A stretch of 61,359 bases of DNA, counting the filler. It is 3 parts of 3 records of this genome, joined end to end, with 100 filler letters (N's around TTAATTAATTAA, not from the genome) between each part and the next. Parts side by side here need not be neighbours in the genome. Positions count along the whole stretch, not along the records: positions 51,580 to 61,359 come from SRR20825019_1036; 2 more parts are not named here. The stretch is one strand, 5' to 3'. The number at the start of each line of letters is the position of its first letter. The stretch's first letter is position 1. This document shows, one piece after another, positions 29,995-61,359 of this stretch. A model generated the notes under the pieces. It ran no database searches. It was not told the DNA's origin and was given only the letters and a program-made list of their open reading frames with translations. The translations under genes were made by a program, and so were the position numbers.

Positions 29995-30023
29995 GCGGAG
30001 AAAGAGGGATTCGAACCCCCGGA
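29995..30023 (-). tRNA. 3' fragment of a tRNA, probably tRNA-Ser, cut by the contig end
   Basis: Minus strand TCCGGGGGTTCGAATCCCTCTTTCTCCGC gives a T-arm (GTTCGAATC) plus acceptor-stem 3' strand; anticodon not visible. Confidence 0.8.
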
Positions 30024-30123
30024 NNNNNNNNNNNNNNNNNNNNNNNNNNNNNNNNNNNNNNNNNNNNTTAATTAATTAANNNNNNNNNNNNNNNNNNNNN
30101 NNNNNNNNNNNNNNNNNNNNNNN
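30024..30123. other. Artificial contig spacer
   Basis: 44 N + TTAATTAATTAA (stops in six frames) + 44 N; base composition and gene content switch across it. Confidence 0.99.
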
Positions 30124-51479: not shown

Positions 51480-51579
51480 NNNNNNNNNNNNNNNNNNNNN
51501 NNNNNNNNNNNNNNNNNNNNNNNTTAATTAATTAANNNNNNNNNNNNNNNNNNNNNNNNNNNNNNNNNNNNNNNNNNNN
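51480..51579. other. Artificial contig spacer
   Basis: 44 N + TTAATTAATTAA + 44 N. Confidence 0.99.
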
Positions 51580-51596
51580 CAGGTCCAGGCATATAT

Positions 51597-53353
51597 ATGT
51601 CCACACCTCACAAGTCTGCTAGCCATGCGCAGAAGGCCACAGGCAATGCGCTGTCGGCTGCACTTTCCGGGTTCTCATACCTTGTGGGTATGTCTTTTTC
51701 AACTAATTGCCTTCCTTTTTCTCACTGGACATTTTAGGTCTTCACGTATTGTCACGAGTGGTGTCCTTTGTACTGAATGTGGCCATCGCGAAGACGGTTG
51801 GCCCTGCAGTATATGGAGTAGCATCGGTTCAATTTCATCTTGTGCTCAACTCGGTCCTGTTTCTAGCTCGGGAGGGATGTAGGAAGGCATGCCTGCGCGC
51901 GACGCGGGCAACCGCTCGTGAACGCGTGGACCTTATGCACTTGACACTCCCTATCGCCATGGGCGGGTGCTTATTGCTGTATTACAGCATGGCGGCCGGA
52001 TGTGATACAGATACAGGATCAGGAGTCTGCGATGGTGTTTACTCCCACGCAGTGTTGGTCATATTGGCTTCCTGCGTGATGGAAATTTTGTCCGAACCTG
52101 TATATGTGCTGCTCTCCGCAGAGATATCGGAAAGGGGCGGTCTTGCAGCACGAGTCCGCATAGAACTAGGCGCTGTTCTCTGCCGGAGCACACTGACATA
52201 CGTGTTGATTTGCCTCGTTGAGTTTGATCAAACCCTGTCATTTGCATATGGGCAACTAGGATACGCTCTATTCCTGACGGGTGGGTTGTATACCTTCTGT
52301 GTGATGCGAGCACGTGGGCCGGTGAAAGATGGCATGCTTTTTGCGGGAATCCGAGACATCTTGCCCCGAATTAGCAGTACCGAACTTAGAAGAGACTCGG
52401 AGATTCTCGTGTTTGCTGGGCAGTTTTCCGTGCAGTCTGTCGAGAAGTTCATCCTCACAGAAGGCGAGAAACTCGTCTTGCTCAGCAGCTTGGCGTCGGA
52501 CCAAGGGATTTATGGACTTGTGAGCAACTTGGGATCTTTGGTTGCACGCTTTGTACTGCAGCCATTGGAGGAAGTCGGATACGTCCTTTTCGGTAGGCTT
52601 CATGGTGATGGCAATGATGCCACTGCCCTTCACATATTGGAGGTTCTGCTCCGCTTGGTGATTCTCCTTGGCGGTGTATTTGTGTCATTTGGCCCAAACT
52701 ATTCATTCATTTTCATTGACATCATTTACGGGTCGACTTGGAGCGCGAGCGAGGCTCCATCGGCCTTGTCGTGGTATTGTGTGTATGTTCTGGTCATCTC
52801 GGTGAACGGCATTTGCGAGGCATTTGTACACTCCACAGCACCTGCGTCGCAGCTTGCATGGTACAATAAGGTTTTTGTACCGCTGGCAATAGCTTATCTC
52901 GGTGTCGCCTACATGTTTGTCCGCTCGGCGGGAGTTTCCGGATTGATAGCAGCAAATACCATTAACATGGTCTCTCGTATTGTTCTGAGCCTGTCGTTTG
53001 TTCTCAAACTATCGAGGTCTAGCCAGTGCAAGCAGGATATTAGTCTAGTCCCCTCGCCATGGGTGATTGCATCATACACTCTGTGTTTCATCGTGACAGG
53101 GTTGTCAGAGCAATATTTTGGGGCAAGAATTGGGCAAGACAGGAAGTGGAGCTTGAAGGCCAAGGCAGGGCATATTGGAGTCGGCATTGTGTGCCTTGGT
53201 GCCCTAGGTCTAGCACTGTAAGTTGTTGATTGTGAGTGATGCCTTCGCTGACCACTTTTCACCCCCAGGATTAGGTTGGAGAGGAGCACCATTAACGGCA
53301 TCAGGTGGATGAGGAGCCTGAAGAACCAACAGGCACATACAAAGGATGATTAA
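51597..53353 (+). CDS. RFT1: Eukaryotic RFT1 (Man5GlcNAc2-PP-dolichol translocation protein); exons 51597-51687, 51738-53217, 53269-53353
   Basis: LSRVVSFVLN, FLAREGCRKA, EILSEP, KFILTEGEK, QGIYGLVSNLGSLVARFVLQPLEE, NGICEAF; introns GTATGT…TTTTAG (50 nt) and GTAAGT…CTGAC…CAG (51 nt) restore one open frame. Confidence 0.93.
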
Positions 53354-53536
53354 TGCCCGTTTCTGCAAGTATCTGCGATCCAGTACCAGCCCAGTCCGAA
53401 GGATGCCAATCTCCAACCACCCCTTCCCACCCCAGTGCGGTAATATCCGCACAAGAGAGGAAAATCGGACCTAAACCTGCTGCAATAATGTCTTGTTATA
53501 CTACATTTTAGTTGTGTTAGGTCGCATCCAGAATAT

Positions 53537-54316
53537 CTAATCCTCCAGCGCACCCTCCAACGGCCAAAAGCAGTCGGTAATAGTCTTGCTAGGAATGCAA
53601 AGGAACTCATCAACTGAGAGAGGAATGCAAATACCGGCACAGCTAGGAATGGGAATGCACTCCTTCCAAAGCATTTCATAACATACAATATTGGAGCCAA
53701 CATCCTTAAGGAAGTCCCTCCAGAACTCACGCCACGGGCAAAGGGCGGTCCAGATACAGCACTGGCAGCATGGGCCAATACCCTTTCCACACGCACCGCA
53801 CCAATCAATTAGGAAAGCGGCACAAGGCCTCAACAGCACGAAGGTGAAAATAATGGGTGGCCGCAGAATTCGCCACAAGCCGTCCAAGATGGGCTGTGTC
53901 CAGTACACTGTGATGGTGCGAATGGGTACAGCCCAGAAGTAGTAAACCATCCAACCACAAAAGCGAAGGACAGAAAGGAAAATGAGAGCTGGGACATAGG
54001 CAAAGAAGGACAACCACTGATAGAAGTAGTATACGAACAGGTTCCATGCGACACAGCAGTGGCAGAGATGGCCACCCCTGTCCATCACAGGCTCATCCAA
54101 AGGAATTTCCGGAACCAGCCTCCACGAGTCATTATAGATGTTGAAGGGCACAACATGCTTGCCAAGCTCCTTGGCGGCTTCAGAAAGCTGGTCCTGTTCC
54201 TCGTCAAGCAGGATGGGCTCCAACCTGACATTGATGATCCTCTCCGCCATATTTCCATTGGTGAAGCCGATTTCTGGCTCCTCAGAAAAGGGTTGGTCAC
54301 CGTGGTGAACCCCCAT
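53537..54316 (-). CDS. Caveolin-like membrane protein, paralog A (259 aa, Cys-rich C-terminus)
   Basis: ATG with an in-frame upstream stop; clear similarity to the 55542-56237 gene; YYFYQWLSFFAYVP-x21-P spacing matches caveolin. The ORF is well supported; the family call is tentative. Confidence 0.6.
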   Translation of the reverse strand: MGVHHGDQPFSEEPEIGFTNGNMAERIINVRLEPILLDEEQDQLSEAAKELGKHVVPFNIYNDSWRLVPEIPLDEPVMDRGGHLCHCCVAWNLFVYYFYQWLSFFAYVPALIFLSVLRFCGWMVYYFWAVPIRTITVYWTQPILDGLWRILRPPIIFTFVLLRPCAAFLIDWCGACGKGIGPCCQCCIWTALCPWREFWRDFLKDVGSNIVCYEMLWKECIPIPSCAGICIPLSVDEFLCIPSKTITDCFWPLEGALED

Positions 54317-55541
54317 GATGTCTGCGTACAGCTTTTACGCTGTCGTGTGAACATAGATATATGAAGCATCCGCCTCGTAACATTCACGACTGGTGGCAAC
54401 GCTCTGTAGCGGGTCAACCGTATCTTGCGTTCCACCCTGGTCCTCGCAAGCCATCAACTCCGCAAACTTCTGGTCTGTAATACGACCCAACAACCCTTCG
54501 TCACGCCTGTCTCCCTCCCCGGCGGCCCCGGGGACCCCGGGACCCTGGGACCCCAGGCCCCTGACGGCTGGCTGGTGGTCACTGCGATGTCTACCTCCCT
54601 CTCGGCCCTTGGACGGCCCGGCCCGGCAAACGCCATAATCGTGGGCGTTGCCACAGCGCAAGGCCTGAGCACGCGGCACGGCGCTCGCTGGCATTGAACG
54701 CATGATGCGTGAGACTCGTCACTGCCGGCCGCAACTACGCAACGCATCTGAAACCGTTTTCCCCGTCGTTGTCGCGCCGGCGGGGCCGAGTGCTGACTGA
54801 CCTCCGCCGAGCCCCAGGCGTGATACGGTCTATGGCGAGATCAAAAATTTTGAATTCGATTGGATCTGGATGATAAACGCTGATCGAGCCGCCGGCCGAG
54901 TAACCGTCAAACGAGCACCCTTCACGCAATCACTCAGTTTGACCAGCCCGTCACCTGAGCCGGCCCTATGCGTGATCACTTCATGCAAATCATTCAAAAA
55001 GTTGCGCAGGCAGGGCGGGGCCCTAACGTAACTTGGGAAACGCCACCGGCCCCCCAGTCGGCCGCGGGGACGCAAGCCGTGTCGCGGCGGCCGGCGCGGC
55101 CGGTTGGGACCGGCCGGCTGCCATCATCGACCAGCCAAGCTGCCATACTGAGTCAGGGGTAGCGACGTAGTAGTCTGTTGGTAGTGCGTGTGCACGGTTG
55201 GTTGCGGCTCCATGATTGGGTATTCCCTGGAGGGACCGTGTCGCTTCCCAGTCGGTTGTCACCTGGGGCCGGGTTGACCCGTCTGGCTGCGAACAGCGTG
55301 GCAAGTGCAGAGCGGGCCAACAAGCGACTATACTCGTGGAGCAGGAAAACTCAGCCTGCTTTCGCCGCGCGATGGAGCTCCGCCGAAGTCACTGCGGACA
55401 GCAACCTGCTGGGACTCCAACACCTCTGCACAATGGAGCTGTGGCCTTTGTGTGGACCGAAGGAAAGAAACTGAGTGAGTAGAGCCAACGTTTATATTTA
55501 TGTAGAAGTCGTACTTCTAGGCAGTCGAGGTAGTTATCACC

Positions 55542-56237
55542 ATGGGGGATGATGGTGGTGACAAGAAGGAGAAGAAGGGAATGTTTGCCCTTGATGAGCC
55601 AACCAAAAAGACTTTGAAGGCTGAGGCTGAGAAGATCAAGCTGGCCCTTCCGGTCCTGAAGCCTATTGTTCTTACGGATGAATGGGACGAGTAAGTGTCT
55701 TTTAAAAAGATTGGGATTGAACTTTTTGTTGTTGTTTGGAAGGGTTGGTGTTGAAAGATATCGTTCATGGCTAACGGAGTTTACAGGCAATCTCCGGAGG
55801 CAAAGGAGCTTGCTTCCCTGCTTGTTCGCCCTGCCATCTTTGAGCGCCTTGCACACACTGTTCCTCGCTACCCGTTGCTCGAGGTTGAGGAGCCTTTTGA
55901 TGAGGAGGAACCCTCCTCTGCTTTGTACATTTGTTTGCAGAGCCTGACCCGGTGGTGGTACTTTATGTATACTAGGCTAGCACTTGGTGCCTACCCCTTT
56001 GCCGTGTTCGTGAAGGAGTTCATTCGCTTCTGGGGCTTTGTGCTGTACTACTTCTGGGCCGTGCCGTGCCGTTACATTAACGTGTTCTTGTGTGGTCCTT
56101 TCTTGGATGGAATCTACCGGTGCTATCGACCAATTATGGTTTTCCTTGTAATTTTGACGCGTCCTGTGGTTCTCATCATTACTGAGTACAGTGCCGCTTA
56201 TTGGTCTTGCCTCAAGAGGGCCAGGGAAAAGGCATAA
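55542..56237 (+). CDS. Caveolin-like membrane protein, paralog B (199 aa); exons 55542-55690, 55787-56237
   Basis: CACCATGG start; 96-nt intron GTAAGT…GCTAAC…TTTACAG; the spliced product LKPIVLTDEWDEQSPEAKEL aligns with paralog A LEPILLDEEQDQLSEAAKEL. Confidence 0.6.
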
Positions 56238-57283
56238 GCTTTATATATATGTAATAATAACACGCAAACAATAGTGGAAGTGTTGAAGTGTTGCATGACG
56301 TGAAGATGTTAGAGTGCCCAGGTTTAAGAAGGTTTGTGGTGGGGGTTTCCTAAGAGGGTGGCAGGAAGGATGGGCGCCTTATCAAAGTTTCGGGGTGTCT
56401 TAAACCCGAGACGGTTAAAGCATCATTCATTCCTTTCATACCCCCGTCAAAGAGGACGGTGGTTTTTCGTTCTTTTAGCCACTCTTGGCTTCCTTTACAA
56501 TAGATGAATACGGTGTCCACCTAACCAAAAAGTGCGTCGCAAACTTGCCCTCCTGCTAGTCTAGTGGCCACCTTCGGTTCCCTCCAGTTGGTACTCGTCT
56601 CGTCATAGTTGGTGGCCACCACCAATGAACGTATGCACTGGACGTAACTTGAATCTCACTCACACGGCGCTGCCCTCCCTCAGTCAGTATCGCGGCGACG
56701 GCCCATCGCCGCCGGCCCCTGGGCACGCGCGGGCCGAACCAACATCGCCATGGCGGGCCCCGCGGTGGCGAGGTGTCGGGAGGCCGTCCTGGTGGTGCCC
56801 GTCGCGGGCCCGCGGCGGCGGCGCGAGCCCGTGACCGCGCCGGCTGGTCGGACGCTGAGTTGGGCCACGGCGGGGCGGGGGAACCCACACTGACCCAAGA
56901 TCGTATACATATGTCAATAGGGAGCTCATCTTTTTTCTTGAACAATTGTTCGTAATTTAGTTGTTGTTTCTTAATGGAGTAGGAAAGATTTTGTGATCTT
57001 TCACTCCACCCGGCCTGACTAACACGAGGAGTCTGACGGTCGCACTGACCATCCATTCTCACATGGTGGCCCCAGCGCCTGACGGGGACCGGACAAGGTT
57101 GGGAAAACCGGGCGGGCTGAGTTGGACGCGGGCCCGTCCTTGACCGGACTGTCCGATGGACCCAAACCACCCTGATCGGCCCGGTTGCGATGTTGGGGGT
57201 GCTACACATGGGGGAGAAGCATGCGTTCCTAAATATGTGTACGACTACAAAGCATATGCCATTTCGTGAGAGGAATGAGGTCC

Positions 57284-60200
57284 ATGAAGTCCTCACTAAA
57301 GCTCTCGCCCGGGTTGGTGGTGGGGTTGGTCCTCTTTTCCGCCTTGGGAGTCGAGGCTGTGCAGCTGAGGCAAGGAGTCAGAAAGTTCCGTGAACTACAC
57401 GACCCTAAGTCATCTTCTGTTGGAGTTGAGGGAGCCGACTGGGACATTTCAGCAGAGAATAAGGCTTTGTATGATGATCAGGAGAGGTTCGTTTTCACCT
57501 GCACTGGGACTGAAGCAAAGGCACCGAAAACTTTCCCTTCTAAATTTCTGGAGTGCTGTCAACCTGTACACTGGTTGATACCTCGCAAACTTGACGCAGA
57601 TAAGGACAGTATCAAGGATAGTGACTTGTCTGCAGATTACGCTAGAGCTCATGATGCTGGACTGGAATGGCTACAGCAGCAGGTTCTACGAGATCCGTTT
57701 GAGACTTACAGTCGTGAGTGCTTGGAGGCTATCACAGAAGTCAAGTGCTTAGGTTTCAGGCGTTGTGATGGTGACAATGTGCAGCATGTATGTGCGAAGT
57801 CTTGCAATTATGTGCAGAAGGTTTGTGCCAAACACATGGACGCCATTATTTTCCCCGCTTTTAAGGACTGCAATAACACTGAGTTCTGGGATCAAGGTAA
57901 TGAGAATTGTCTTACAAGGGAAGCTCTCGGCGGGGATGCTTGGGAGGTGCCTGACAGATGCGTTGCGCCCCAAGACCTGCGGCATAAGGACATTGCCGCG
58001 TTTGAAGAAAATAAGGAAAATGCACTGGCTGGTTTTAAGCCTGGGGACGATGAGTTGACGGAGGAGAAGGCGTTGGAAGTTGTTCACGCACTCCAGAACC
58101 TCCTGGTGCATATTTTCTCCGTGTCATATCACGGTGCCCAAGACGGATGGGTTAGGGATACCGTCAATGATGCCAACGGCATTCATCAGGAAGTAGTGTC
58201 AAAGGAGGATGAAGTTTGGGAGCTGGAGGAAACTTTGAAGCAGTATTTGTCCGACATTGATGCGATGATGAGCGACAGCGCGAACAAGAATATTATGGAC
58301 ATGCTTCAAACAGCACAATCACATGTTGCTGCCGCAATATCACATCTAGACATCGCGGCAGAACACAGGGCGGAATTTGGTCATCACCTTGCCAATATGA
58401 TTATGAAATCCAGAATTCCACACAAACTGCCCAAACCCATTAACAAGCTGCCATCGACTATTCCCTTGTCGAAGATGCCGGCTCAAGAAGCCGCATCTAA
58501 TGCTGCGGCTCCAACTGAAAAGGGAGAAAAGAAACCCGGAAGCCCAAGTATCAAAACTCCAAAGCAAGCTGGGGCTGGTTCTTTGGCAGTGACTCCTTCA
58601 CCTGTGGAGCCAGTCGATTCGCCCTCTAGTGGATCTGGCAATAACCAAGGCGATGTCAGGAATCTTGGCGAACTAGATCCGCCCGACAGGTTTTCCGGGC
58701 AGGGTGAGAGTGAAGGCACGTCAAGAAACGAAGAGAATGTTGATGGCATGGATCGCCCTGAGGCCACAGTTTCTAGTGGAGCGAGCAACTCGGAATCAGG
58801 CATTCCTGGATCAAAGGGGAGCTCAGCAACCGGAAGCCAGGCCAATAGCCCAGGAAGCGCCACAGAACCTTCCCTTTCAAAGATTATTCAGATCTCCAAT
58901 GCTGTTTTGAAGGGTCTGAATGAGGAGAGGGCAAAGTGTCTTCCTGTTCCGCTGACGAATATCGTGCAAGTGTTCCCTGTTACGCAGCCAGTACTCGTTG
59001 AAAAGAATTCATGGAGTGTGCACGTGTCGTTCGGGCAAGGTGTTACAAAGGTCATGTATGAGGACAACGATAGTTCCATTGACCAGCTGAAATTTGATCC
59101 ATCTCCTTGCCAACTGGACAGCAACCAAGGGGACGGAGTGACAGAAATTGGAACGGAGGAGGTGGATGTCAAAAATGCCGCAGCTGCAGCTATTAATTTG
59201 TTCAACTCTGCCCGTGGCAACTGCGCTCCTACCCGGAAACCCATCGATCCTACTACGGTTGTTCTGGAGGCTTCTGAGGTGCAAATTGTCCGAGGTCGTA
59301 TTGTGTATCTCCAGCTTAGAATGACGGATCCGGAGACAAAATCAGTGTTTATTCAGAAGTTGCAATTGTGGTATAAGCCTGATGGCTCTATGGTGCTTGA
59401 AGCGGGTGATCCCGGCTTGTGTGGAGGGTCTGATCCGGCCCCGGCACTTGACGAAACCGTAAAAGCAGCGACGCCCTCTAAAGCGATCGAACATTCTATG
59501 CATACTTGGGACCGCCGATTCTACGACCAGTTCCATGGCCCAGACCGTGCATTGCCAACACTGAGTATGTCCGAGGCTATGTGGACCATTGCTTCTCAAG
59601 AAAATGACGATGAGGACATCCCGATGACAGTAATTGAAGATCTTCCCGATTCATTTGACATTCGTCAAGGCGAAAACACCAAAGAATGCGTTCGGGGCCC
59701 AGGCAATCAAGGCGTGTGCGGATCTTGTTGGGCATTTTCGTCAACATTCGTTCTTGCGGAAAGGTATTGCGTCCAATCAGGAGGTAAAATCAATGTACAC
59801 CTCTCTCCTCAGGACGCTCTTGAGTGTAACACTATGCCCGGGGCTATGCATTGTTGTGGAGGTCAGCCTTACGAATCGTGGCAATTCTTGTCACAGGTTG
59901 GTGTTCGTGAGGAGAGATGCGTACCTTACAAGGACTCCGGCACGGTATGTCCGATGTCTGGGTCTGGTGGCATGCAAAACAAGATTCAGCGCACCTGTTT
60001 AGAGACCTTCAGCGACAAGTCGTGTGTGAGGTACCGTGCGGTGGGAGGCATGAGCGGTGCAGCTGCTGGTAGTCGTGTAAAGCGCCAGGGTCGTTTGGCG
60101 AAGCGTGAAGACTATGTCGCACGGAAGTCAAGCACATTCACTCGCGATCTTAATGCTGATACCCCAGAGTACCGGGAGCTCGAACGTATTGTAATGACGG

Positions 60201-61117
60201 CAATATACCAAGGTGGATCTGTGGAAGGCTCCATGGTTGTCCATCCGGACTTGTTTTCCTATAAGGGTGGCGTCTACCAGACTGCAGGAAGCGAAAGGGG
60301 TGGCGGTCACATGGTGAAGATTGTGGGCTGGGGTGTCGAGAAAGGGATGAAATACTGGACAGTTCAGAATTCATGGGGTACCAACTGGGGTGAGGCTGGT
60401 TTCTTCCGGATTCGCCGGGGTGTGAATGAGTGTCGCATTGAGGATATGTTCAGATGGGCTGATCCTCTTCGGACATGCAAGAACGATTGCACTGGGCGTG
60501 GTCTTTGCAACAATGGCGCGACGGTTAATGATGCTGGATCATGCCAATGCGCTGTTGGCTTTACAGGAGAGGAATGCGGCACTATAACCCTTGACCACAT
60601 GAATCCTGCCAATTCTTACTGGACGAATGCCAAGGACGGAGAAAGTGTGATGATGCAATCTATTGATAACCGGCTTACATCCGGTACACTCACCCCGGAA
60701 AGCAAGGCCCAAATTGATTTTTGCGGCAAGAAGGAGTCCAATACAAAGGGCTTTGATCTTGTCAACAGATATTGTGGTGCGAAGGTTGCTGTAGGAGGGG
60801 ATTGCTCTGCGGATTGCAAGAAGTACTTAGAGGAGCACATAACCCGAATGAAAACATGCGGAACCAAGGCCGCGGATTTCCTCGTTTGGGGTAACAGGCC
60901 CGCCACCTTGATGGTGAAGCAGTGTGGGCTCATGTCGGCTTTGGGTGTGTCCCTAGGACAATTCCAGGCGGTTCGTTCACGCCGGCGGGGCGCCGGGAGC
61001 CAATCGTCGAATGATAACAGCTCATACAGCAGCTCGTCATCGAGTGCTGGCGCCGCAATTCCGAAAGCGGGGTGGTTGGTTCTGACAGCTCTAATTGCAC
61101 TGATCTTGCTGTTCTAA
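57284..61117 (+). CDS. GPI-anchored multidomain papain-family (C1A, cathepsin B-like) cysteine protease
   Basis: Signal peptide; LPDSFDIR, QGVCGSCWAF, GGHMVKIVGWG, QNSWGTNWG; EGF-like module; Ser-rich spacer plus hydrophobic C-terminal tail; start may be at 57275 or 57284. Confidence 0.9.
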   Translation: MKSSLKLSPGLVVGLVLFSALGVEAVQLRQGVRKFRELHDPKSSSVGVEGADWDISAENKALYDDQERFVFTCTGTEAKAPKTFPSKFLECCQPVHWLIPRKLDADKDSIKDSDLSADYARAHDAGLEWLQQQVLRDPFETYSRECLEAITEVKCLGFRRCDGDNVQHVCAKSCNYVQKVCAKHMDAIIFPAFKDCNNTEFWDQGNENCLTREALGGDAWEVPDRCVAPQDLRHKDIAAFEENKENALAGFKPGDDELTEEKALEVVHALQNLLVHIFSVSYHGAQDGWVRDTVNDANGIHQEVVSKEDEVWELEETLKQYLSDIDAMMSDSANKNIMDMLQTAQSHVAAAISHLDIAAEHRAEFGHHLANMIMKSRIPHKLPKPINKLPSTIPLSKMPAQEAASNAAAPTEKGEKKPGSPSIKTPKQAGAGSLAVTPSPVEPVDSPSSGSGNNQGDVRNLGELDPPDRFSGQGESEGTSRNEENVDGMDRPEATVSSGASNSESGIPGSKGSSATGSQANSPGSATEPSLSKIIQISNAVLKGLNEERAKCLPVPLTNIVQVFPVTQPVLVEKNSWSVHVSFGQGVTKVMYEDNDSSIDQLKFDPSPCQLDSNQGDGVTEIGTEEVDVKNAAAAAINLFNSARGNCAPTRKPIDPTTVVLEASEVQIVRGRIVYLQLRMTDPETKSVFIQKLQLWYKPDGSMVLEAGDPGLCGGSDPAPALDETVKAATPSKAIEHSMHTWDRRFYDQFHGPDRALPTLSMSEAMWTIASQENDDEDIPMTVIEDLPDSFDIRQGENTKECVRGPGNQGVCGSCWAFSSTFVLAERYCVQSGGKINVHLSPQDALECNTMPGAMHCCGGQPYESWQFLSQVGVREERCVPYKDSGTVCPMSGSGGMQNKIQRTCLETFSDKSCVRYRAVGGMSGAAAGSRVKRQGRLAKREDYVARKSSTFTRDLNADTPEYRELERIVMTAIYQGGSVEGSMVVHPDLFSYKGGVYQTAGSERGGGHMVKIVGWGVEKGMKYWTVQNSWGTNWGEAGFFRIRRGVNECRIEDMFRWADPLRTCKNDCTGRGLCNNGATVNDAGSCQCAVGFTGEECGTITLDHMNPANSYWTNAKDGESVMMQSIDNRLTSGTLTPESKAQIDFCGKKESNTKGFDLVNRYCGAKVAVGGDCSADCKKYLEEHITRMKTCGTKAADFLVWGNRPATLMVKQCGLMSALGVSLGQFQAVRSRRRGAGSQSSNDNSSYSSSSSSAGAAIPKAGWLVLTALIALILLF

Positions 61118-61266
61118 ACTTAGAATCAAAACTTCTACATAAAAACTCTGTTACGAATATCTCAATACAACGAAAATATTGACCTGAAAAGGAGCAAGAG
61201 CGTCCTCCGCACGGCGGCGCGCTGTGACGCAGCCGGGCTCAGTCGTGGCCAAGCAGCGTTGCCGAA

Positions 61267-61288
61267 TTGGCGGGAAGTTGGCGCGAAA
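61267..61288. promoter_or_regulatory. Two tandem E2F-like sites
   Basis: TTGGCGGGAA and TTGGCGCGAAA, 11 bp apart. Confidence 0.3.
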
Positions 61289-61359
61289 CTCGCCACCATA
61301 ATCGGAAGAAGGCCTATCCCGCCGGCCCACGCCGCCTCCCCCCCCCCCCCCCCCCCCCC

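Follow-up and report, generated by a model that had tools for sequence, protein, structure and literature searches.

The window analysed here is a 61,359-base stretch of DNA in which three unrelated contigs are joined end to end, and our subject is a head-to-head pair of genes on the third contig, called A and B. A preliminary description of this DNA had presented them as divergently transcribed caveolin-like paralogs of a microbial eukaryote, with gene B split by an intron. The pair proves to be expressed and to belong to a very small, undescribed protein family, so far found in a few marine or metagenomic eukaryote sequences, whose members share an unusually regular hydrophobic helical core. 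The features of the locus, in positions of the window, are the following.

53537-54316, minus strand: coding sequence of gene A (protein P0001), intron-less, 259 residues plus stop, from the open reading frame and its translation.
53786-54067, minus strand: conserved helical core of A, residues 84-177, from the family alignment, AlphaFold2 (AF2) and the periodicity test.
54317-54329, minus strand: 5' untranslated region (UTR) of gene A, 13 nt, with the mRNA 5' end at 54329.
54330-55526: spacer between the mapped 5' ends of A and B, 1197 nt, 60.5% G+C.
54357-54361, minus strand: TATA-like element of gene A, at -32 from the mapped 5' end.
55493-55497, plus strand: TATA-like element of gene B, at -34 from the mapped 5' end.
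55527-55541, plus strand: 5' UTR of gene B, 15 nt, with the mRNA 5' end at 55527.
55542-55690, plus strand: coding part of gene B exon 1, 49 codons and 2 bases.
55691-55786, plus strand: intron of gene B, 96 nt, GTAAGT...ACAG (GT..AG), 36.5% G+C.
55787-56237, plus strand: coding part of gene B exon 2 with the stop, holding the entire conserved core (P0002, residues 51-199 of B).
55913-56194, plus strand: conserved helical core of B, exon-2 residues 43-136, in columns equivalent to A 84-177, from the alignments and AF2.

The spliced coding sequence of gene B is 600 nt long, in frame, and encodes 199 residues. A aligns with B exon 2 at 33% identity over 136 residues (E 1e-17) and with the spliced protein at 32% identity over 187 residues (E 2e-22), collinear from residue 1 of both. 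Removal of the intron thus restores the frame of B and lengthens the alignment, which supports its position at 55691-55786. Judged by their sequences, A and B are established as real paralogs, with a similarity far beyond chance. The coordinates, this alignment and the complementary DNA (cDNA) joint given below bear out the divergent arrangement and the split gene B, and the motifs put forward as shared by the two proteins, L-x-P-I-x-L...AKEL and RF-x-G-xx-YYFWAVP-x-R...P-x-LDG...RP, are indeed present in both. No further copy of either gene was found in the window, the next-best tblastn matches having E values of 0.66 for A and 0.28 for B.

Both genes are expressed. Parts of the stretch are carried by four public runs, whose contigs were mapped to positions 53400-56400 and of which two, X1 and X2, come from one sample. 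The exact splice joint, 55690/55787, occurs in one cDNA-type contig each of X1 and X2, skipping the 96 nt between GT..AG ends with 164 nt on the shorter side, so that the predicted intron is confirmed in RNA-derived molecules. Gene A is covered by a cDNA-type contig at 53681-54329 in X1 and at 53506-54285 in X2, and the gene B contigs begin at 55527 in both runs. Fragments of gene A with at least 99% identity are also found in two marine metatranscriptome runs, X3 and X4, from two further studies. The region 54410-55520 has no cover in X1 or X2 and was not used as evidence.

At 54329 (A) and 55527 (B) the X1 contigs run on into loose ends, that of B ending ...ACGCAGAGTACATGGGG. We take these ends to be template-switch-oligo-like, in the case of A as the reverse complement, and other contig ends have sequence like that of a transposase adapter. 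On that understanding the molecules are of cDNA type, and 54329 and 55527 are the probable cap sites of A and B. The first ATG after the 5' end of A is the start codon of the gene, and no spliced leader was seen at the mapped 5' ends of A and B. Since each gene has its own TATA-like box and the two 5' ends lie 1197 nt apart, the pair appears to use separate core promoters, not a single compact bidirectional one; the spacer at 54330-55526 yielded no repeats and no RNA family. Co-regulation of the two genes and hetero-oligomerisation of their products, as put forward in the preliminary description, are conjectural.

A profile of the conserved core, searched against 1.84 billion cluster representatives, retrieved ten proteins at E ≤0.001, with four at E ≤1e-10 and one at E ≤1e-30. 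P0011, a 525-residue tandem-repeat protein matched in 7 short stretches, was dropped, and the family as used here consists of 11 sequences, namely A, B and nine credible relatives (P0004-P0013 minus P0011). Word-index searches found only P0004 with A, nothing with B exon 2, and only P0004 and P0013 with the alignment. P0004 is the orthologue of A (62% identity, E 1e-127 in this search), and the two group together in a maximum-likelihood tree with support of 98/100, which places the A/B duplication before the split of the two organisms. The same tree contains a distant clade of P0008, P0009, P0012 and P0013 (99/98), and the positions of B, P0005, P0006 and P0007 lack resolution. Collections of metagenome, viral and prokaryote-genome contigs gave no confirmed relatives, the metagenome search having been run also with the neighbouring RFT1 gene. 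The Protein Atlas gave no usable match for A, and the best score there, 0.81 for P0008, lies inside the stated noise of the tool. None of the 11 members is assigned to a Pfam family, and a Pfam-A hmmscan with a maximum E of 10 matched A and B exon 2 to no family; together with a negative literature search, this leads us to regard the family as undescribed.

The ends of the proteins differ between the paralogs. A Met-Gly start is common to A (54311-54316, minus strand), B (55542-55547, plus strand), P0004 and P0005, of which A and P0004 (G-x-H-H-G-D) presumably fit the N-myristoylation pattern, which is absent from B and P0005. If only the A-type paralog had a lipid anchor, A and B would differ functionally. 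Residues 178-259 of A (53540-53785, minus strand) make up a C-terminal tail, rich in Cys, Pro and Trp, that has no equivalent in B and that AF2 models with confidence below 50; an insertion of 43 residues, alike in composition, lies in the corresponding tail of P0004.

Given the family alignment, AF2 predicts a long helix in both cores. For B exon 2 (mean predicted local distance difference test, pLDDT, 82.6) the helix spans residues 45-148 with block pLDDT of 77-96, preceded by residues 1-44 at 56-67. For A (mean 60.5) it spans residues 86-176 at 78-92, and residues 1-44 and 207-259 remain below 50. Superposition of the models on straight coiled coils of ~100 residues gives a root-mean-square deviation of 10-22 Å, and that of the ~50-residue stretches on each side of P131 one of 2-5 Å; the poor long fit and the good half fits indicate a helix strongly bent near P131.

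In A numbering, Y107, G121, P131, P142, P153 and C183 are invariant in all 11 members, and A110, R118, Y126 and P164 are kept in ten. Small or helix-kinking residues thus recur at 110, 121, 131, 142, 153 and 164, a spacing of 11 residues with one step of 10. Eleven residues correspond to three turns of a 3-11 helix. The loop before the core carries a conserved V-P-x-x-P-L motif, whose P69 is found in each of the 10 members with a residue there and whose P72 is found in 9 of the 10.

The hydropathy of the core has a matching period. Averaged over the family, columns 84-177 display a helical periodicity peak at ~97 degrees per residue, where the 3-11 helix has 98.2, with a power of 0.807 against 0.33 ± 0.089 in shuffles, a level that 0 of 2000 shuffles reached. 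Taken one by one, eight of the 11 sequences peak at 96-97 degrees and three at 102-103 degrees. The hydropathy phase is constant within 84-133 and again within 132-177, with a jump of ~190 degrees at P131. Placed in 3-11 geometry, A110 and G121 lie at +90 degrees and P131-P164 at -101 degrees from the centre of the hydrophobic face, offsets that put the breaker residues on the lateral edge, between this face and a narrow polar stripe. In the second half of the core 41 of 42 cysteines lie on the hydrophobic half. The core as a whole is 62-71% hydrophobic, 12-28% aromatic and 6-15% charged, and in five members (B, P0004, P0009, P0012 and P0013) it contains no charge-free run of 20 residues.

The two products resemble helical proteins embedded in a membrane, with an N-terminus that is acidic and disordered. 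We prefer, with a probability of roughly 0.5, to read each of them as monotopic, with curved helices lying in-plane in a membrane or a lipid-droplet surface, and as resembling caveolin in principle only. Each protein would consist of three parts: an acidic disordered N-terminus facing the cytosol, the conserved V-P-x-x-P-L element, and a very hydrophobic helix of ~94 residues, rich in aromatic residues and Cys, whose two halves, of ~46 residues each, join at the invariant P131. The helices would not cross the bilayer; instead they would form curved arcs within one leaflet or within the monolayer of a lipid droplet, with the hydrophobic face and most cysteines, as possible S-acylation sites, turned into the lipid and a stripe of Arg and Asp turned to the cytosol. 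Each protein would probably be packed laterally against further copies of itself or against its paralog. The pair of ~46-residue helices, the narrow polar stripe that persists along them, and the conserved charges and prolines at every 11th residue speak against ordinary transmembrane spans and for an in-plane position, and lateral kinks, repeated every three turns, would bend the helix always in one plane and so produce an arc. The hydrophobicity is far too high for an exchangeable protein, which favours a permanently embedded monotopic scaffold, probably self-associating in the leaflet or droplet monolayer and possibly S-acylated.

Several observations weigh against this arrangement. AF2 draws the monomers as a single unbroken helix, and in the first half of the core just 28 of 42 cysteines lie on the hydrophobic half. 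The periodicity is significant for the family as a whole and weak in A and B themselves, whose amphipathicity by the Kyte-Doolittle scale is slight (z 1.3 and 0.9), most of the signal being due to the distant clade (z 3.9-5.6). All 11 proteins have at least one 19-residue Kyte-Doolittle window above the classical threshold of 1.6, charge-free runs of the core reach 34 residues in A and 39 in P0010, and the family alignment rests on 11 sequences only. A complex prediction for A 55-185 with B exon-2 10-149 scored 0.00; alignments were unused in it and the partner fold is uncertain, and we counted it neither in favour of binding nor against it.

These hydropathy windows and the long charge-free run of A make spanning or re-entrant segments a serious rival, which we consider possible though unlikely. 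The proteins would then be integral, entering the membrane by a re-entrant hairpin, by two such hairpins or by a pair of transmembrane helices (in A at ~94-117 and 154-176), and would act as an oleosin- or reticulon-like hydrophobic wedge or anchor. The 19-residue peaks reach 1.6-2.3 in all 11 proteins and fall at 102-120 and 155-173 in A, and a conserved Y-P in the middle of the first segment and an R-P in the middle of the second resemble hairpin turns. As in oleosin-type and other monotopic hairpin proteins, a long hydrophobic centre with conserved prolines lies between polar termini, and P0012, though none of the other ten members, is matched below threshold by the Pfam model for Oleosin (13.3 bits where the cutoff is 25, E 0.071). 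No proline-knot motif is evident in the family, however, and its hydrophobic region, unlike that of oleosin, is broken by conserved charges: R118, R133, D145, R149, R152 and R163, with the invariant prolines, cut the core into units of 11 residues, too short for spans. The five members without a 20-residue charge-free run fit spanning segments poorly, as do the helical polar stripe that continues across all 94 columns and the AF2 prediction of two helices of ~46 residues in place of units of ~20. That the hydrophobicity is instead the buried oligomer core of soluble or peripheral coiled-coil proteins seems to us scarcely credible. The models do consist of long helices, but with 62-71% of residues hydrophobic, 12-28% aromatic and only 6-15% charged, the composition over 94 positions is far beyond that of soluble coiled coils, and a proline at every 11th residue is unfavourable to a canonical coiled coil.

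The caveolin assignment of the preliminary description, made from short local resemblances to human CAV1, is not supported by any of the sequence or profile comparisons. None of the 11 members matches the Pfam Caveolin model at E ≤10, in a search whose HMMER filters drop most matches above E ~0.1. Among PDB chains at E ≤10 no caveolin was retrieved: phmmer found 0 chains with B and one unrelated chain with A (E 1.4), and the 11-sequence profile found one unrelated chain (E 0.92). For scale, the caveolin of Salpingoeca rosetta, 13% identical to human Cav1, was accepted with a caveolin hidden Markov model at E 8.8e-11, and a candidate from Capsaspora was rejected at E >0.05 (PMC12330381). Four fold searches with the models of A and B placed no caveolin in the top 50 of ~48,000 chains nor in the Foldseek results; these are weak tests for this fold, since the Cav1 protomer itself is described as retrieving only long helices (PMC9094659), and we treat the missing caveolin there as uninformative. 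The individual motifs fare little better. The string LLEVEEP of B had been offered as a caveolin-type signature, and its EEP element is present in only 4 of the 11 members. FWAVPC and LCGPFLDGI, aligned with CAV1 in the earlier account, have prolines 11 residues apart in B against an implied 26 in CAV1, so that the two matches are not collinear; the figure of 26 combines the CAV1 strings as quoted there with the numbering of P132, Cys133 and Cys156 given in PMC9094659. For the proline spacing of 22 between P109 and P131 of A the arithmetic is right, but most members have 23, with a Pro at column 108 in 8 of the 11. The Pro-to-Tyr spacing of 22 noted in B is likewise counted correctly.

We therefore consider it very improbable that A and B are true, extremely divergent caveolins forming homo- or hetero-oligomeric amphipathic discs in a non-holozoan protist. 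The layout does recall the seven-element caveolin scheme of PMC12330381, with a variable disordered N-terminus, a Pro-containing loop and ~90 helical residues in a small protein, the in-plane position of the helix being predicted here and known there. Cysteines on the lipid-facing side are a further likeness, as for Cys133, Cys143 and Cys156 of Cav1 (PMC9094659). The scaffolding helix and spoke region of caveolins comprise ~90 residues of amphipathic helix in the membrane plane; here helices are predicted at A 86-176 and B exon-2 45-148, with a putative in-plane position and with an amphipathic periodicity that is significant for the family but weak in A and B. A and B are paralogs and genomic neighbours. 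CAV1 and CAV2 are also adjacent in the genome. Apart from the absence of detectable sequence or profile similarity, the family differs from caveolins in the loop before the first helix, where V-P-x-x-P-L (loop pLDDT 50-65) stands in place of the signature motif conserved in the caveolin hook loop. Also missing is the caveolin C-terminal beta-strand, which forms a central barrel: B is predicted helical to residue 148/149, and the strands of A at 231-239 appear only at pLDDT below 50, although 60% of the 'atypical' sponge caveolins are also predicted to lack this strand (PMC12330381). The strict 11-residue Pro/Gly spacing is specific to the A/B family and has no counterpart among the caveolin features described in PMC12330381 and PMC9094659, and assembly of A and B into discs is a proposal only. 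Known caveolins are confined to Metazoa and choanoflagellates according to PMC12330381, and our literature search found none reported outside these groups; the host of A and B differs from them in being intron-poor.

The proposed arc follows the logic of two known systems: the helices of caveolin, which spiral in the membrane plane, and the 11-residue helices of lipid-surface proteins, namely the proline-punctuated 11/22-mer belts of apolipoproteins and the 11-mer helices of perilipins. Perilipins, apolipoproteins and synuclein are described as having 11-mer repeats that form 3-11 amphipathic helices on lipid surfaces (PMC5889406), and ApoA1 as carrying 11/22-mer repeats (PMC6964839). With exchangeable apolipoproteins such as apoA-I, perilipins and alpha-synuclein the family shares the 11-residue periodicity and the 3-11 phase of ~98 degrees per residue, and as in apolipoproteins and perilipins its prolines would kink a long amphipathic helix and so allow it to fit a curved lipid surface. 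The proline-punctuated, 11-residue periodic amphipathic helix is thus found in the family, with breakers at each of the six positions from 110 to 164. An apolipoprotein or perilipin profile is not (no Pfam match), nor is a broad charged face: those proteins are soluble and exchangeable, whereas the A/B family has a narrow polar stripe and a strongly hydrophobic core with few charges. Nor does the A/B family contain a recognisable sequence repeat, since only the spacing of the breakers recurs. We found no evidence of common descent with caveolin or with the apolipoproteins, and we regard the family as one of putative in-plane, amphipathic-helix lipid-surface scaffolds, not as demonstrated caveolins.

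A bolder version of the in-plane scaffold would have A assemble with B into flat discs or belts of proline-curved, in-plane helices that replace a patch of one leaflet in a marine protist. The caveolin principle would then have been invented independently outside animals and choanoflagellates, or the family would be a relative too old to be recognised. We hold this to be improbable, and it would matter considerably if true. Membranes or lipid droplets would be shaped or organised by such discs or belts. In-plane helical scaffolds that replace a leaflet are known to date from caveolins, which according to PMC12330381 are confined to animals and choanoflagellates, and a second family built on the same principle in an unrelated marine protist would imply either repeated evolution of the principle or a far greater age than has been supposed. 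The proteins would also provide a small, simple model for proline-curved hydrophobic helices. Read conservatively, A and B represent an expressed, conserved and wholly unannotated membrane-protein family of unusually regular architecture, whose 11-residue spacing gives clear, testable predictions for topology, curvature and acylation. The case also cautions against inferring caveolin homology from short motif matches.

Because the window is composed of joined contigs, the genomic neighbourhood of the pair is limited to positions 51580-61359 (9.8 kb). The spacers between the contigs have the form N44-TTAATTAATTAA-N44 and give runs of N at 30024-30123 and 51480-51579. The contigs and the other genes of the third are as follows.

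1-30023: contig 1, ~31% G+C, densely packed with long open reading frames.
30124-51479: contig 2, ~58% G+C, 96% identical over 5999 bases to the bacterial genome G001 (4.6 Mb, single contig).
51580-61359: contig 3, ~50-55% G+C, eukaryotic.
51707-53350, plus strand: RFT1 gene (Pfam Rft-1, E 2.6e-101), convergent with gene A.
57233-61117, plus strand: open frame of 1294 codons with a papain-family Peptidase_C1 domain at residues 804-1072 (E 2.2e-45).

G001 matches neither contig 1 nor contig 3, and a protein match between it and gene B (E 0.354) was taken as chance. The contigs differ in composition and affiliation, which indicates that the assembly mixes organisms. Contig 3 uses the standard code and has few, short introns and very short mapped UTRs, and both the 1294-codon frame and a 504-codon exon are uninterrupted. 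It looks like the DNA of an intron-poor microbial eukaryote, which we take to be unlike an animal or a choanoflagellate. The microbial-eukaryote host proposed in the preliminary description agrees with this gene structure and with the fragments of at least 99% identity in the two marine metatranscriptome studies. A match of contig 3 to an Rfam long non-coding RNA family (25.3 bits against a cutoff of 43) was read as chance.

The stop codons of the RFT1 flippase-like gene and of gene A lie ~190 nt apart. RFT1 has apparent short introns of ~50-60 nt, read by eye, one at ~53222-53270 and another near its 5' end. At its start the protein encoded at 57233-61117 looks like a signal peptide, and its hydrophobic C-terminal tail resembles a glycosylphosphatidylinositol-anchor signal; it also contains a Ser-rich stretch and a match to the Fz domain that stays below threshold, and it is unusually large for a cathepsin-like protein. 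The base composition of contig 3 is inverted with respect to the usual pattern, with 51% G+C in coding sequence (A, B, RFT1 and the protease), 36.5% in the gene B intron and 56-60.5% in intergenic spacers. At the end of contig 1, positions ~29995-30023 resemble, by eye, the 3' part of a minus-strand tRNA gene that is cut by the contig end.

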